The position numbers were made by a program, and so were the translations under genes. Positions 3,469 through 63,286 of a stretch of DNA of 64,000 nt are shown piece by piece. Each line of letters starts with the position of its first letter. Within the stretch, counting starts at the first letter, position 1. Source of the DNA: Escherichia coli (lineage in GTDB: Bacteria > Pseudomonadota > Gammaproteobacteria > Enterobacterales > Enterobacteriaceae); NCBI RefSeq assembly GCF_002854065.1, contig NZ_CP024147.1, one strand, 5' to 3'. A model generated the notes under the pieces. It did no database searches and had not been told where the DNA came from. It was given only the letters and a program-made list of their open reading frames with translations.

Positions 3469-3632
3469 GCCTTATCTCCACCTCTTCGCGTCATTACGCG
3501 ATATTCATTAAAGTGGCGAAAGCATGCAGCAATCACAAAAAAATGAAAATAACAAAAAGAGAAAACACTTTTGCCATTTTGCTAACAAACAGGAAGGAGA
3601 TGCGAGGGAGAACGCGCTCCCTCGAGAGGAAA

Positions 3633-3722
3633 TCAGTGCAGCGCGGCAGTCAAACCCACGGCTACGATCAAACCGAGGACGATAATCGTTGTTACCAGTG
3701 AAAATTTAAGGTCGGTGCTCAT
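3633..3722 (-). CDS. ynhF: 29-aa single-helix small membrane protein
   Basis: Hand translation of the minus strand: ATG (complement 3720-3722) ... MSTDLKFSLVTTIIVLGLIVAVGLTAALH, stop at 3633-3635; AAGGAG Shine-Dalgarno 8 nt upstream. Too short for the ORF track. Confidence 0.7.
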   Translation of the reverse strand: MSTDLKFSLVTTIIVLGLIVAVGLTAALH

Positions 3723-3960
3723 CAAGTTTTCTCCTTTTTTATTACCACACAAAAAGTGATATTACGCATTTTTACACACTGTGATGAAAAAATCTCCCGT
3801 CATTTATAATGATAAGTGTTTTTACCACTTCCCCTTTTCGTCAAGATCGGCCAAAATTCCACGCTTACACTATTTGCGTACTGGCCATTGACCCCTTCCT
3901 GACGCTCCGTGTCGTTTTTCCGGCGTACCGCAACACTTTTGTTGTGCGTAAGGTGTGTAA

Positions 3961-3976
3961 AGGCAAACGTTTACCT
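3961..3976. promoter_or_regulatory. PurR operator O1 (PUR box) in the purR leader
   Basis: AGGCAAACGTTTACCT fits the PUR-box consensus ACGCAAACGTTTTCNT; 45 bp upstream of the purR start. Confidence 0.7.
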
Positions 3977-4020
3977 TGCGATTTTGCAGGAGCTGAAGTT
4001 AGGGTCTGGAGTGAAATGGA

Positions 4021-12611: not shown

Positions 12612-12688
12612 GCGTTCATAGCTCAGTTGGTTAGAGCACCACCTTGACATGGTGGGGGTCGTTGGTTCGAGTCCAATTGAACGCACCA
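12612..12688 (+). tRNA. valV: tRNA-Val (anticodon GAC)
   Basis: 77-nt cloverleaf: acceptor GCGTTCA/TGAACGC, D-arm GCTCAGTTGGTTAGAGC, anticodon loop CTTGACATGG, T-arm GGTTCGAGTCC, 3' CCA. Confidence 0.95.
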
Positions 12689-12692
12689 TCCT

Positions 12693-12769
12693 GCGTCCGT
12701 AGCTCAGTTGGTTAGAGCACCACCTTGACATGGTGGGGGTCGGTGGTTCGAGTCCACTCGGACGCACCA
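12693..12769 (+). tRNA. valW: tRNA-Val (anticodon GAC), second copy
   Basis: 77-nt cloverleaf identical in core to valV but with acceptor stem GCGTCCG/CGGACGC; 4-nt spacer between the copies. Confidence 0.95.
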
Positions 12770-12800
12770 GATTTTCTTAATCTGGTCTTCTCCTTTTTCC
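12766..12800 (+). terminator. Intrinsic terminator after valW
   Basis: Stem ACCAGAT / ATCTGGT followed by CTTCTCCTTTTTCCC. Confidence 0.6.
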
Positions 12801-12876
12801 CTCTGCTTCTTCTCTGTATCCAATACGTTAAAAGATTTACACTGTCTTCGTATGCGTTATCAGAAGGAGAATCGCT

Positions 12877-13182
12877 ATGGCAACTTTGTTACAACTTCAT
12901 TTTGCTTTTAATGGCCCATTTGGCGACGCAATGGCTGAGCAGCTTAAACCACTTGCTGAGTCGATTAATCAGGAACCTGGTTTTCTGTGGAAGGTATGGA
13001 CAGAAAGTGAAAAGAACCACGAAGCCGGCGGGATCTACCTTTTCACTGATGAAAAAAGCGCCCTTGCCTATCTGGAAAAACACACTGCCCGACTGAAAAA
13101 TCTCGGCGTTGAGGAAGTTGTCGCCAAAGTTTTCGATGTCAATGAGCCACTGAGTCAAATCAATCAGGCAAAACTCGCCTGA
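12877..13182 (+). CDS. ydhR: Small conserved protein of unknown function
   Basis: 101-aa ORF with RBS GAAGGAG 6 nt before the ATG; position after the tRNA-Val pair. Confidence 0.8.
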
Positions 13183-31621: not shown

Positions 31622-31690
31622 AATAAGAAAACCCTTAAGTCTGTGCGACACAGGCTTAAGGGTTTCTACCCCATCCGGCGCTTATCTCCG
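31622..31690 (-). ncRNA. rydB: Probable small RNA RydB
   Basis: Minus-strand 17-bp hairpin (31629-31665, one A-C mismatch) followed by UUUUCUUAUUU, at the sufA-ydiH position where RydB is annotated in K-12; the 5' end is estimated. Confidence 0.4.
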
Positions 31691-31887
31691 GCACTCTCAG
31701 TGGCTTAGCTCTTGAAGGGGCGATAAGAATAATCTCATAAAGCTAACCCGCCGTTTTAACACAAACTGCGATTAGTATTATTTTTGAACAATATCAGGCG
31801 GGTAGATAAGCAGTATTAAGAAGGTCATCGAACCTGGACGGAGGTTAATCCAGGTCGATTTGGCGAACTTGCGGCATTAAGTCAGGA

Positions 31888-32586: not shown

Positions 32587-35500
32587 TTAATAATCTCCAG
32601 TAAAGCCTGCACAGGATGGCGTACCCCCGTGCCTTCAACCCGTTTGACCTGACTACGGCAGGAATATCCGGTCGCCAGACAGCGGTTACGCGGCAGTCGC
32701 TGCATAGCCTGATGCCAGGATAACTCATAGATCCCGAGCGAATTTTTATGGTTTTTCGCTTCATGTCCGTAAGTCCCTGCCATGCCGCAGCAACCCACGC
32801 TGACATTTTCCAGTTTCGCGCCAAAACGGGCAAATATCGCGGCCCATTGTGCTGGCGCACCCGGCAAGGCGGTAACTTCGGTACAGTGACCAAAGAAATA
32901 CCATGATTCACCGCTGACTGTAGCCACTGGCTGTGACTCAAGTGCGCTTGCCAGCCATTCATTCGCCAGTAAGACGTTAAACTCGCCACGTTCCTCGCCC
33001 AGTGCCAGTTTATATTCATCGCGATAACAAAGTACCAGCGCCGGATCGACGCCTACCATTGGCATACCCAGCTTCGCCATACGGTTGAGGAAATCCGCCG
33101 TCTTTTTCGCCGTCTTCGCAAAACGATTAAGAAAACCTTTAATATGCTGGGCTTTGCCATTTGGCGAAAATGGCAGTAACACAGGCTGGAAACCTAATTT
33201 TTCGACCAGACGGACAAAATCCGCCACCACTTGCGCATCGTAATAGCTGGTAAAGGGGTCCTGCACCACCAACACCGTGCGCGCTTTCTGCTCTGCATTG
33301 AGAGCTTCAAGCTGTTCCAGCGTCATGTTTGCCGAGCGATGCCCCACCATTTGTTGTTGTAGCGAGGGGACCGACAGCAGCGGCAAATCAACCATGCCGA
33401 TATGTTTTTCCGAGAGTTTGCGCATCAGCGGCTGGTTAATGAAGAAGTTAAAGGTTTTCGGCGCGCGTGCCATCAGCGGTGCGTAGCTCTCGACCGTAGC
33501 GACGAGGTGGTCGCGCAGCGGACGTAAATAACGGGTGTGATAGAGCTGCAGGAAACGAGAGCGAAACTCCGGCACATCAATTTTGATGGGGCACTGGGTC
33601 GAACAAGCTTTACAGGCCAGACAGCCCGACATCGCCTCTTTGACTTCGTGTGAGAAGTCATATTCGCCTTTATTCGCATGCCAGCTATTGCGCGTGCGGG
33701 CAATTAACGTCCGCAAACTGACGCCGGATTCAGGCAGTTCTTGTTCCAGTTTGAGTGGATCAACGCCGCGATCCGCCAACAAACGCAGCCATTCACGCAC
33801 CAGCGTTGCGCGCCCTTTCGGTGAATGAATCCGGTTCTGGGTGATCTTCATCGACGGACACATCGGACTACGGGCATCAAAGTTGAAGCATAAACCGTTG
33901 CCGTTACACTCCATCGCACCGCGCCACTGCTGGCGTACCGCAATGGGGATCTGCCGATCGAATGTACCGCGCTTCACCGCGTCCACTTTCATCATCGGCG
34001 CATCGAGACCTTCTGGCGGGCAAATCTTCCCTGGGTTGAGTCGGTTATGCGGGTCAAATGCCGCTTTCACTTTGCGCAGTTCTGCAAAAAGTTCCTCACC
34101 GAAAAACGCCGGGCTGTATTCAGCGCGAAAACCTTTGCCGTGCTCGCCCCACAACAAACCACCGTATTTCGCAGTCAGCGCCACCACGTCATCAGAAATT
34201 TGCTTCATCAAAATCTCTTGTTGCGGATCGCACATATCCAGTGCCGGACGGACGTGCAACACCCCAGCATCGACATGACCAAACATGCCATAACTTAAGC
34301 CGTGGCTGTCGAGCAGCGCGCGAAATTCAGCAATATAATCGGCCAGATGTTCCGGCGGTACGCAGGTATCCTCAGCAAACGGAATTGGCTTAGCGGCACC
34401 TTTGGCATTGCCAAGCAGACCAACGGCTTTTTTGCGCATTGCATAGATACGTTCAACCCCCGCCAGCTCACGGCACACCTGCCAGCCGATGACACCTGCT
34501 TGATGACTGGCGATCAGCTCATCCAACCGCGCACAGAGTGCATTTACCCGCTCATCAATCAGCGCCTCATCATCACCAGCAAATTCCACAATGTTCAGCC
34601 CGAGCATCTCTTGGTCAGGCACATCGGTAATCAACTCGCTGACGGAATGCCAGACAATATCTTCCCGCGCCAGATTCAGCACTTTTGAGTCCACCGTCTC
34701 TACCGAAAGCGCCCGCGCCTCAACCATAAACGGCGCGTTACGCAGCGCAGAGTCAAAAGAGTCATATTTGACGTTCACCAGACGGCGCACTTTAGGCAAG
34801 CGCGTAATATCCAGCCGCGCTTCGGTAATAAAGGCCAGCGTCCCTTCTGAACCCGTCAGAATGCGCGTCAGGTCGAACTCGGTCATCTCATCGTTAAAGA
34901 CATGACGCAGATCGTAACCGGTAAGAAAGCGGTTAAGTTTGGGGAAGTTGTCGATAATTAACTGGCGTTGCTGACGGCAACGTTGATAAACCGTGTTATA
35001 AATTCGCCCGATTGCGGTATTGGTTTTACCCAGCGTTTCCGCCAGTTCGACGGGTAAAGGTTGCGTATCGAGAATATCGCCCCCCAACAACACCGCGCGT
35101 ACGCCAAGTACGTGATCTGACGTTTTGCCATAGACCAGCGATCCCTGACCGGATGCATCGGTATTGATCATCCCGCCGAGCGTTGCCCGGTTGCTGGTCG
35201 AAAGTTCTGGTGCAAAAAAGTAGCCGAACGGTTTCAGGTACTGATTGAGTTGGTCTTTTATCACCCCGGCCTCAACGCGCACCCAGCCCTCTTCAGGGTT
35301 AATTTCGATGATGCGGTTCATATGGCGGGACATATCAACAATAATCCCCTGGTTGAGCGCCTGACCGTTAGTGCCGGTGCCGCCGCCGCGGGGGGTAAAG
35401 ATCAGCGATGAATAGCGTTCCTGCGCGGCAAGACGGGCGATCAGCGCCACATCTGCGGTTGAACGCGGAAATACCACCGCATCGGGGAGAAGTTGGTAAA

Positions 35501-35639
35501 TACTGTTGTCGGTCGACATTGTCAGACGATCGGCATAACTTGTCGCCGTATCGCCGGTAAAACCTTGTTGCTCCAGCTCTTGCAAAAAATTAAGCACCAG
35601 TTGAACGACTCCGGGTGCCTGGGAAATCTGTGGAATCAT
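32583..35639 (-). CDS. ydiJ: Large FAD-linked oxidase / Fe-S oxidoreductase fusion (D-2-hydroxyglutarate dehydrogenase-like)
   Basis: 1018 aa from MIPQISQAPGVVQLV...; N-terminal FAD-binding PCMH domain, C-terminal CxxCxxC clusters. ORF-track start at 35711 is an unsupported extension. Confidence 0.85.
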   Translation of the reverse strand: MIPQISQAPGVVQLVLNFLQELEQQGFTGDTATSYADRLTMSTDNSIYQLLPDAVVFPRSTADVALIARLAAQERYSSLIFTPRGGGTGTNGQALNQGIIVDMSRHMNRIIEINPEEGWVRVEAGVIKDQLNQYLKPFGYFFAPELSTSNRATLGGMINTDASGQGSLVYGKTSDHVLGVRAVLLGGDILDTQPLPVELAETLGKTNTAIGRIYNTVYQRCRQQRQLIIDNFPKLNRFLTGYDLRHVFNDEMTEFDLTRILTGSEGTLAFITEARLDITRLPKVRRLVNVKYDSFDSALRNAPFMVEARALSVETVDSKVLNLAREDIVWHSVSELITDVPDQEMLGLNIVEFAGDDEALIDERVNALCARLDELIASHQAGVIGWQVCRELAGVERIYAMRKKAVGLLGNAKGAAKPIPFAEDTCVPPEHLADYIAEFRALLDSHGLSYGMFGHVDAGVLHVRPALDMCDPQQEILMKQISDDVVALTAKYGGLLWGEHGKGFRAEYSPAFFGEELFAELRKVKAAFDPHNRLNPGKICPPEGLDAPMMKVDAVKRGTFDRQIPIAVRQQWRGAMECNGNGLCFNFDARSPMCPSMKITQNRIHSPKGRATLVREWLRLLADRGVDPLKLEQELPESGVSLRTLIARTRNSWHANKGEYDFSHEVKEAMSGCLACKACSTQCPIKIDVPEFRSRFLQLYHTRYLRPLRDHLVATVESYAPLMARAPKTFNFFINQPLMRKLSEKHIGMVDLPLLSVPSLQQQMVGHRSANMTLEQLEALNAEQKARTVLVVQDPFTSYYDAQVVADFVRLVEKLGFQPVLLPFSPNGKAQHIKGFLNRFAKTAKKTADFLNRMAKLGMPMVGVDPALVLCYRDEYKLALGEERGEFNVLLANEWLASALESQPVATVSGESWYFFGHCTEVTALPGAPAQWAAIFARFGAKLENVSVGCCGMAGTYGHEAKNHKNSLGIYELSWHQAMQRLPRNRCLATGYSCRSQVKRVEGTGVRHPVQALLEIIK

Positions 35640-35740
35640 TATATTGACCCTTTCCTGCGGTCTGTGATGTAGGTCGATACACTGTTCTTTCAGGCGGCTG
35701 CAATAGCGCACAGAAAGGTGATGTTTATTTACTCTATGGA

Positions 35741-35858
35741 TTTCGAGTTGCAGGAAGGCGGCAAGCGAGTGAACTCCAGGAGCTTACAACAGTAAGTAAC
35801 TGGGGTGAACGAACGTAGCCGCAGCATATGCAACTTGAAATACGACGAGTAAATCGTT
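35741..35858. repeat. ERIC (IRU) enterobacterial repetitive intergenic element
   Basis: GTGAACTCCAGGAGCTTACAACAGTAAGTAACTGGGGTGAACGAACGTAGCCGCAGCATATGCAACTTGAAATACGACGAGTA closely matches the ERIC consensus; boundaries approximate. Confidence 0.55.
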
Positions 35859-36027
35859 TGCGTGTTGCCTGAGTTGTTGTACCACATTTTTTTCTAACAC
35901 GCCCATCAGAATTAAGGGCAGAATCGGCCTGTTAAAAACCGCTGAAATTGCTCATCATTATGCAGGTGAGTTTCGCGTGTTCACGTCGCGTCGACGATTT
36001 GACGCACAAAAAAGGTGAAAAGTAGTT

Positions 36028-37140
36028 ATGGTAAATGTTCGTCAGCCCAGGGATGTCGCACAAATTCTGCTTTCGGTGCTGTTTTTAGCCATCATGATTG
36101 TGGCATGTCTGTGGATTGTTCAACCCTTTATTCTCGGCTTTGCATGGGCCGGTACGGTGGTTATCGCCACCTGGCCGGTATTGTTACGTTTGCAAAAGAT
36201 CATGTTTGGCCGCCGCTCTCTCGCCGTTCTGGTTATGACGCTGTTATTAGTGATGGTGTTTATCATCCCTATTGCTTTGCTGGTTAACAGTATCGTCGAC
36301 GGCAGCGGCCCGCTTATTAAAGCCATTTCCAGCGGTGACATGACGTTACCCGATCTGGCGTGGCTTAATACCATTCCGGTGATTGGCGCGAAGCTGTATG
36401 CAGGCTGGCACAACTTGCTGGATATGGGGGGGACGGCGATCATGGCGAAAGTCCGCCCTTATATTGGTACCACCACCACCTGGTTCGTTGGGCAAGCGGC
36501 GCATATCGGGCGCTTTATGGTGCATTGTGCGCTGATGCTTCTCTTCAGTGCCCTGCTGTACTGGCGCGGTGAACAGGTGGCACAAGGCATTCGCCATTTT
36601 GCAACCCGTCTGGCAGGCGTTCGCGGAGATGCCGCCGTGCTGCTGGCGGCACAGGCTATCCGCGCGGTGGCGCTGGGTGTGGTGGTGACGGCGTTAGTAC
36701 AGGCAGTGCTTGGCGGTATCGGCCTCGCCGTATCCGGCGTACCTTATGCAACGTTGCTAACGGTGTTAATGATCCTCTCCTGCCTTGTCCAGCTTGGCCC
36801 GTTGCCGGTACTGATTCCGGCGATTATCTGGCTCTACTGGACCGGCGATACCACCTGGGGAACGGTATTGTTAGTGTGGAGCGGTGTGGTTGGCACGCTG
36901 GATAACGTCATCCGCCCAATGTTAATTCGCATGGGTGCCGATTTACCGCTGATCCTGATCCTCTCTGGCGTTATTGGTGGTTTGATTGCTTTCGGGATGA
37001 TCGGTCTGTTTATTGGTCCGGTTCTGTTAGCCGTTTCCTGGCGTCTGTTTGCCGCGTGGGTGGAAGAAGTCCCGCCGCCGACGGACCAACCGGAAGAAAT
37101 TCTCGAAGAACTTGGCGAAATCGAGAAACCGAATAAGTAA
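36028..37140 (+). CDS. ydiK: AI-2E (UPF0118) family membrane transporter
   Basis: 370-aa polytopic ORF with acidic C-terminal tail. Confidence 0.85.
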   Translation: MVNVRQPRDVAQILLSVLFLAIMIVACLWIVQPFILGFAWAGTVVIATWPVLLRLQKIMFGRRSLAVLVMTLLLVMVFIIPIALLVNSIVDGSGPLIKAISSGDMTLPDLAWLNTIPVIGAKLYAGWHNLLDMGGTAIMAKVRPYIGTTTTWFVGQAAHIGRFMVHCALMLLFSALLYWRGEQVAQGIRHFATRLAGVRGDAAVLLAAQAIRAVALGVVVTALVQAVLGGIGLAVSGVPYATLLTVLMILSCLVQLGPLPVLIPAIIWLYWTGDTTWGTVLLVWSGVVGTLDNVIRPMLIRMGADLPLILILSGVIGGLIAFGMIGLFIGPVLLAVSWRLFAAWVEEVPPPTDQPEEILEELGEIEKPNK

Positions 37141-62886: not shown

Positions 62887-62945
62887 GGTATCCGTTCTGC
62901 TGAAGTGTCATGGCGTTGATTTTACGGTGACTCTTCGACAGTGAA

Positions 62946-62975
62946 AAGAAAAAAGGCCGCAGAGCGGCCTTTTTA
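62946..62975. terminator. Bidirectional intrinsic terminator downstream of ihfA
   Basis: Stem GGCCGC / GCGGCC flanked by an A-run upstream and T-run downstream. Confidence 0.6.
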
Positions 62976-62986
62976 GTTAGATCAGA

Positions 62987-63286
62987 TTACTCGTCTTTGG
63001 GCGAAGCGTTTTCGACCCGGCTTTTTAACTTCTGCCCGGGTCTGAAGGTCACCACGCGCCGTGCTGTAATGGGAATATCCTCGCCCGTTTTCGGGTTACG
63101 TCCCGGGCGTTGATTCTTATCACGCAGATCGAAGTTACCAAAACCAGAGAGTTTCACCTGTTCGCCGTTTTCCAGAGCGCGACGGATCTCTTCGAAAAAC
63201 AGTTCAACCAGTTCTTTGGCATCCCGCTTGCTAAGCCCAAGCTTATCAAACAGATATTCTGACATTTCAGCTTTTGTAAGCGCCAT
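62987..63286 (-). CDS. ihfA: Integration host factor alpha subunit
   Basis: 99-aa [55 protein letters not shown]... Confidence 0.97.

Follow-up and report, generated by a model that had tools for sequence, protein, structure and literature searches.

The segment from position 35728 to position 35853 is a complete, ordinary full-length ERIC (IRU) element, which lies in the spacer between the divergent genes ydiJ and ydiK of Escherichia coli. The best explanation overall, and one in which we place high confidence, is that a member of the ERIC family inserted in the ydiJ-ydiK control region. This divergent control region is 388 bp long in the window (i.e., the whole stretch of 64,000 nucleotides that was analysed), and its features are given below, with the basis of each assignment in brackets.

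Start codon ending at 35639, minus strand: ydiJ, D-2-hydroxyglutarate dehydrogenase (annotation)
35640-35666, minus strand: 27 nt from the ydiJ start codon to the insertion point, carrying the ydiJ ribosome-binding region (alignments)
35667-35727, no strand: "orphan" segment of about 58-61 bp, part of the same indel but not ERIC (absent from the short allele)
35728-35853, plus strand, in the orientation of the published consensus: complete ERIC (IRU) element, 126 bp (end-to-end paralogue homology, nhmmer, consensus)
35728-35734, plus strand: left terminal inverted repeat TTTACTC, family consensus TATACTC (alignments)
35769-35811, plus strand: central conserved core, the ERIC1R/ERIC2 primer region at the hairpin tip (38/44 match, one gap)
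35847-35853, plus strand: right terminal inverted repeat GAGTAAA, family consensus GAGTATA (alignments, inverted repeat I1)
35854-36027, no strand: conserved regulatory block of the spacer, context and not repeat (alignments)
Start at 36028, plus strand: ydiK, AI-2E family transporter (annotation)

E. coli O157:H7 genomes contain the spacer and its flanks at 100% identity. In the O157:H7 region and in K-12 alike, the neighbours are annotated as ydiJ on the minus strand and ydiK on the plus strand, in agreement with the divergent ydiJ-ydiK location given in the earlier note. The same ERIC copy is found in K-12 MG1655, which carries the long form of the spacer (see below); the ERICs there and at ybhI-ybhJ are unannotated in RefSeq. 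RprA is encoded downstream of ydiK.

Membership in the ERIC family was assessed by comparison with other copies. A blastn search of 5426 complete E. coli genomes, using positions 35727-35856 as the query, revealed a median of 11 ERIC places per genome (range 2-17). In genomes without the ydiJ-ydiK copy, the best matches are paralogues that share 84-88% identity with query positions 1-128 (E values of 1e-29 to 1e-35). With the ERIC family consensus, nhmmer recovered the ydiJ-ydiK copy at E = 5.8e-24, and neither this search nor one for the primer core detected a second ERIC copy in the 64 kb window. The 44-nt core query, built from the two ERIC-PCR primers (both sequences of the pair co-occur in 233 papers), aligns on the plus strand at 38 of its 44 positions with one gap. 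Exact and 3-mismatch searches with the same core gave no match, owing to a 1-nt deletion. The assignment to ERIC/IRU is thus upheld by the end-to-end paralogue homology, the primer core and the nhmmer score. The earlier note had also described the match to the consensus as close; this holds in the sense that 109 of 127 positions (86%) are identical to the local family consensus, with the qualification that the 1-nt deletion shortens the CCCC run.

The limits of the element are set at both ends by an alignment with three fetched paralogues (ybhJ-ybhI, yeiL-psuT and yeiS-preT), in which the homology spans TATACTC to GAGTATA, with unrelated sequence on either side. Similarity to other ERIC copies does reach both ends of the element. 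The span 35741-35858 previously proposed for it did contain the repeat, but it began 13 nt too late on the left and ran 5 nt too far on the right, so that the left terminal repeat was lost and five flanking bases were added. In the left terminal repeat, position 2 is changed from A to T, and a matching change is present in the right repeat (column 3/127). The terminal TA of the 7-bp repeats has thus mutated symmetrically in this copy, and the pairing of the terminal repeats is therefore kept.

These data leave practically no probability that the element is a chance palindrome, a repeat of another family (REP/BIME) or an intrinsic terminator. It has in common with such sequences its palindromic shape only, whereas its homology to ERIC runs from end to end at E values of 1e-29 or better; it measures 126 bp as opposed to the 20-40 bp of REP elements (PMC3733652); and it lacks the T-run of a terminator, the terminator scan being empty. 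The paralogue matches, the boundary alignment and nhmmer refute all three of these readings.

The ERIC family, also called IRU or RU-1, has been known since 1990-91, and the ydiJ-ydiK copy is a known kind of repeat (Sharples & Lloyd 1990; Hulton et al. 1991; Wilson & Sharp 2006, cited in PMC2229807 and PMC3184786). Family members are 127 bp long (PMC2229807, PMC3184786), carry 7-bp terminal inverted repeats with TA at the termini and give rise to a long stem-loop RNA; no transposase of their own is known, and they are treated as non-autonomous mobile elements (PMC2229807, PMC3184786, PMC10969869). Like the other members, the 126-bp copy described here is an imperfect palindrome with a conserved central core and 7-bp terminal inverted repeats; it is intergenic, belongs to a multi-copy set in E. 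coli, is polymorphic in presence and absence among strains, and falls within the 84-88% identity range noted above. It differs from them in having one base fewer in the CCCC run, in the paired change of its terminal repeats, in the lack of a readable TA duplication, and in the 175 bp that separate its filled and empty alleles, since an unrelated segment of 61 bp accompanies it.

The capacity of the element to form a hairpin is evident from its sequence. The 26-nt inverted repeat I1 has its arms at positions 35727-35752 and 35829-35854, and RNA of the plus strand folds into a single long hairpin of -55.2 kcal/mol (z = -7.7), a value attained by 0 of 200 shuffled sequences. RNA of the minus strand folds less stably (-37 kcal/mol, z = -3.6). 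The consensus hairpin of the family, derived from 12 copies in Escherichia, Enterobacter, Buttiauxella, Yersinia and others, consists of 33 pairs, eight of which show compensatory changes; the TTTACTC/GAGTAAA termini of the present copy represent one of these paired changes. In 10 of 11 ERIC copies, RNA in the published orientation is the more stable of the two.

No Rfam family matches the ydiJ-ydiK ERIC at threshold. Two models give full-length, sub-threshold matches on the plus strand, namely V_AS5 (RF02818; 38.7 bits, E = 3e-7), which aligns to 35727-35849, and Ysr49 (RF02766; 26.6 bits), which aligns to 35727-35892. Both have the same long-hairpin architecture as the element, and, together with the very stable plus-strand fold, they could be taken to indicate an independent ERIC-derived sRNA gene. 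We consider such a gene very improbable. The scores are far under the gathering thresholds (96 bits for V_AS5 and 95 bits for Ysr49), so that the ydiJ-ydiK copy is no member of either family; V_AS5 and Ysr49 evidently describe ERIC-like hairpins of Vibrio and Yersinia, and similarity to them would hence be expected of any ERIC copy. In addition, there is no promoter-like or terminator-like signal beside the element, and 22% of strains lack it. Elsewhere in the window, above-threshold Rfam matches were obtained for STnc550 (3630-4020, minus strand), rydB (31661-31721, minus strand) and STnc540 (62887-63045, minus strand), and HPnc0260 (12731-12893, minus strand) overlaps the second of two tRNA genes located at 12612-12766.

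Two open reading frames overlap the element, one of 52 codons (35729-35887, minus strand) and one of 25 codons (35718-35795, plus strand), and ORFs in ERIC copies have been noted by reviews (PMC2229807, PMC10969869). The 52-codon frame is open in all six long alleles examined, but nearly all of the substitutions among these six alleles alter the amino acid (11 variable residues), and there is no sign of purifying selection on the product. The frame is still open because few changes have occurred, and it is absent from the short allele, which is the ancestral one. A small protein encoded here is exceedingly unlikely, and we rejected this reading in view of the nearly uniform non-synonymous changes.

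The ydiJ-ydiK site is dimorphic in E. coli. The long allele, in which the spacer is 388 bp and contains the ERIC, occurs in 4255 genomes, and the short allele, with a spacer of 213 bp and no ERIC, occurs in 1168 genomes, each of them covering a junction-spanning probe in full. The two alleles account for 5423 of the 5426 genomes, and no intermediate alleles were seen among them. Presence and absence thus vary between strains, as the earlier note had stated, with 78% of the 5423 complete genomes filled and about 22% empty. Genomes with the short allele include a Nissle 1917 derivative and O25b:H4-ST131, which we take to belong to phylogroup B2. Short-allele strains of the Nissle/ST131/MS7163 type (e.g., H87, H88 and H93-H98) have 3-4 ERIC places detectable with this blastn query, as opposed to 10-14 in most other genomes, which suggests a difference between lineages in ERIC content or conservation.

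The polarity of the dimorphism was assessed in 80 loci, collected as YdiK relatives in species-representative genomes. Seven Citrobacter species have a ydiJ-ydiK spacer of 213 bp, and in many other genera its length is about 196-213 bp. The short allele of E. coli also keeps a motif, GAGAG(A)TTAATCG, that resembles the Citrobacter spacer (GTG-ATGAGAGATTAATCG in the short allele, compared to GTGTGTTGTGAGAGTTAATCG in C. amalonaticus) and is absent from the long allele; the short allele is therefore no deletion derivative of the long one. Judged by this equal length and similar motif, the empty allele is the ancestral state. Within the genus, E. albertii, E. whittamii, Escherichia sp. E1V33 and SCPM-O-B-8794 possess the long allele with identical junctions, and Escherichia sp. 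MOD1-EC7003 possesses the short one. The genome deposited as "Escherichia coli SCPM-O-B-8794" (L010, NZ_JAATUR010000015.1) is about 30% divergent from O157/K-12 at 4-fold sites, and it therefore resembles a cryptic Escherichia clade; its label looks wrong.

The difference between the long and short alleles is 175 bp and not 126 bp. To the left of the ERIC, the long allele contains the orphan segment, which stands in for about 7 bp of the ancestral spacer, is single-copy, and is found in exactly the 4255 long-allele genomes. No match to the orphan was found elsewhere in the E. coli genomes (E <= 10), in the ERIC HMM, in the extra DNA beside the ERIC of Enterobacter sp. JUb54 (see below) or, outside Escherichia, in the 80 enterobacterial ydiK loci. 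Its comparison with the ERIC on either strand gave no significant similarity, as 363-428 of 500 shuffles score as well. These similarity searches spoke against the orphan as a degenerate half of an ERIC, as some other repeat and as the product of a local duplication. The orphan matches the left flank of the ybhJ-ybhI ERIC at 14/18 positions, which is no better than other chance alignments. Within E. coli the orphan is more variable than the ERIC, being up to about 10% divergent, in 1670 genomes.

The right junction of the insert (GAGTA|AATCG) is compatible, give or take 1 nt, with insertion at the TA of GATTAATCG, but it is the only junction that is, and no TA target duplication is readable at the ends of the element, where the flanks are TT...AA. 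As the indel comprises 175 bp, and not 126-129 bp, it does not represent a clean single ERIC insertion.

On this evidence, the ERIC landed in the sole poorly conserved stretch of a compact divergent control region, where a spacer of about 10 bp separates the ribosome-binding region of ydiJ from the conserved regulatory block. It arrived together with, or adjoining, the 61-bp single-copy orphan, either by insertion in an Escherichia ancestor or by later spread among Escherichia lineages through recombination, and the ancestral empty allele still segregates in about 22% of E. coli. On the ydiJ side of the insertion point, positions 35640-35666 are invariant across all Escherichia alleles compared, and the minus strand upstream of the ydiJ ATG reads AGGAAAGGG. 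On the ydiK side, the block at 35854-36027 is common to the long and short alleles and to Citrobacter, Salmonella and Enterobacter, and it diverges by 0-0.6% within E. coli-like genomes. Its left part (35854-35900), which adjoins the insertion point on the right, contains the sequence TTGTTGTAyCACATTTTTTTCT, strongly conserved in Escherichia, Citrobacter, Salmonella and Enterobacter. Regulation of ydiJ and/or ydiK probably acts through this shared sequence, and TCACATTT in it is, by resemblance, a candidate CRP half-site.

Since the empty allele leaves just 37 bp from the ydiJ ATG to the conserved block, the ydiJ promoter would have to lie in that block, and the variable spacer would then be located at, or just past, the transcription start of ydiJ. 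With the promoter in the block, the ERIC and the orphan would probably belong to the 5' leader of the ydiJ(-menI) mRNA, transcribed in the antisense, more weakly folding orientation. Scans of the long and short spacers for sigma-70 promoters and for intrinsic terminators detected neither, and no ydiJ transcription start was found in the literature and supplements searched; a ydiJI operon is listed (PMC3946193). Any influence of the insert on the expression of ydiJ would most likely be small or neutral.

In Yersinia, ERICs located downstream of a gene affect the stability of co-transcribed mRNAs in an orientation-dependent manner (PMC2229807, PMC3184786, PMC10969869), and this effect acts via an RNase E site according to De Gregorio et al. 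2005, as summarised in PMC2229807 and PMC10969869. The Yersinia copies and the present one are of the same repeat family, with the same long hairpin and an orientation-dependent asymmetry in RNA stability. The former, however, are located downstream of or between co-oriented genes, and the latter is located between divergent genes, with no co-oriented gene upstream of it. Both of its neighbours point away from the ERIC, which can therefore sit only in a 5' leader, and the Yersinia mechanism, in which the ERIC is downstream of the gene, does not transfer directly to the ydiJ-ydiK site.

The divergence of the insert was compared with that of its surroundings, both within E. coli and between Escherichia species.

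O157 versus K-12: ERIC 3.2%; orphan 6.6%; ERIC plus orphan 4.3%; conserved block 0%; 4-fold sites about 4%
Between Escherichia species: ERIC plus orphan 4-7%; 4-fold sites 26-45% (more than 150 nt into the genes)

The divergence of the insert within E. coli fits weak or no constraint, whereas the low values between species could mean purifying selection rather than neutrality. The latter comparison bears on the possibility that the ERIC and the orphan were co-opted as a cis-regulatory leader of ydiJ, acting on mRNA stability or ribosome access and selected in Escherichia. In addition to the low between-species divergence and the precedent of altered mRNA stability in Yersinia, a 15-nt stretch of the left ERIC arm shows 80% complementarity with the ribosome-binding region of ydiJ (I2), and the minimum-energy and centroid folds of the 266-nt leader both contain pairing between the orphan and the initiation region of ydiJ. 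These pairings are suggestive, but neither is supported statistically, the fold of the whole leader being no better than those of shuffled sequences (z = -1.3). Moreover, change in the insert within E. coli equals or exceeds the synonymous rate, the orphan reaches 10% divergence in 1670 genomes, and 22% of E. coli lack the insert altogether. On balance, we regard co-option as unlikely.

The low between-species divergence also forms part of a wider trough centred on the spacer (window positions 35490-36180, compared with L008-L012). In the first 50 codons of ydiJ and ydiK, 4-fold sites diverge by 4-10% between Escherichia species, compared to 26-45% further in. The trough is not specific to the insert, because it extends over the initial 150 nt of both genes and also appears in the lineages with the empty allele; it is weaker in Citrobacter and Salmonella pairs. 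A mosaic structure is visible at the locus (e.g., in E1V33), which fits recombination. We read the trough as the result of some local constraint combined with the exchange of segments among Escherichia lineages, two contributions that the data do not separate, rather than of selection on the ERIC.

The insertion of an ERIC, which remains our preferred account of the Escherichia spacer, has counterparts in other lineages, and the site has repeatedly tolerated inserted DNA. Enterobacter sp. JUb54 carries an independent ERIC in the same orientation, also with extra DNA on its left (L046, 2213-2339), and Enterobacter genomosp. O carries an independent one in the opposite orientation, which adds 125 bp relative to its relatives (L053, 2203-2329, minus strand). 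Isolate 18061 contains two ERIC copies in the ydiJ-ydiK spacer (L055, 2090-2215 and 2330-2456), and Citrobacter amalonaticus S646 contains an ERIC interrupted by about 85 bp of inserted sequence (L025, 2144-2222 plus 2308-2346). In Salmonella arizonae and diarizonae, an unrelated extra sequence of 50 bp is located in the spacer at the insertion spot. The label of L055, "Chryseobacterium sp. 18061" (CACSKA010000003.1), looks wrong, as the ydiJ-ydiK locus is enterobacterial and its YdiK is 83% identical to the E. coli protein. ERICs are also found directly downstream of ydiK in Buttiauxella izardii (L073, 3922-4044, minus strand) and Yersinia aldovae (L087, 3620-3743, plus strand), in the spacer that holds RprA in E. 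coli.

The variable spacer has thus been occupied by ERICs on at least five independent occasions and in both orientations, and three of the independent ERICs sit a few bases or fewer from the Escherichia site. In the 477 kb of fetched loci, six ERIC events were counted inside the ydiJ-ydiK spacer versus two elsewhere (binomial p of about 0.003, although the events are few and these copies had also served to train the model). It is conceivable, but doubtful, that the variable spacer to the left of the conserved AATCGTTTGCG block is a preferred ERIC landing site in several enterobacterial genera and that the Escherichia ERIC and orphan have been retained, or passed repeatedly from species to species, because they act as a leader module that tunes the expression of ydiJ.

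The practical value of these results for annotation lies in the corrected ERIC boundary (35728-35853), with little importance beyond annotation. For E. coli, the ydiJ-ydiK ERIC provides a quantified presence/absence marker. The unusually low divergence of the insert between species might interest those who study recombination in Escherichia, and the reuse of the same few bases by independent ERICs might interest those who work on bacterial MITEs.
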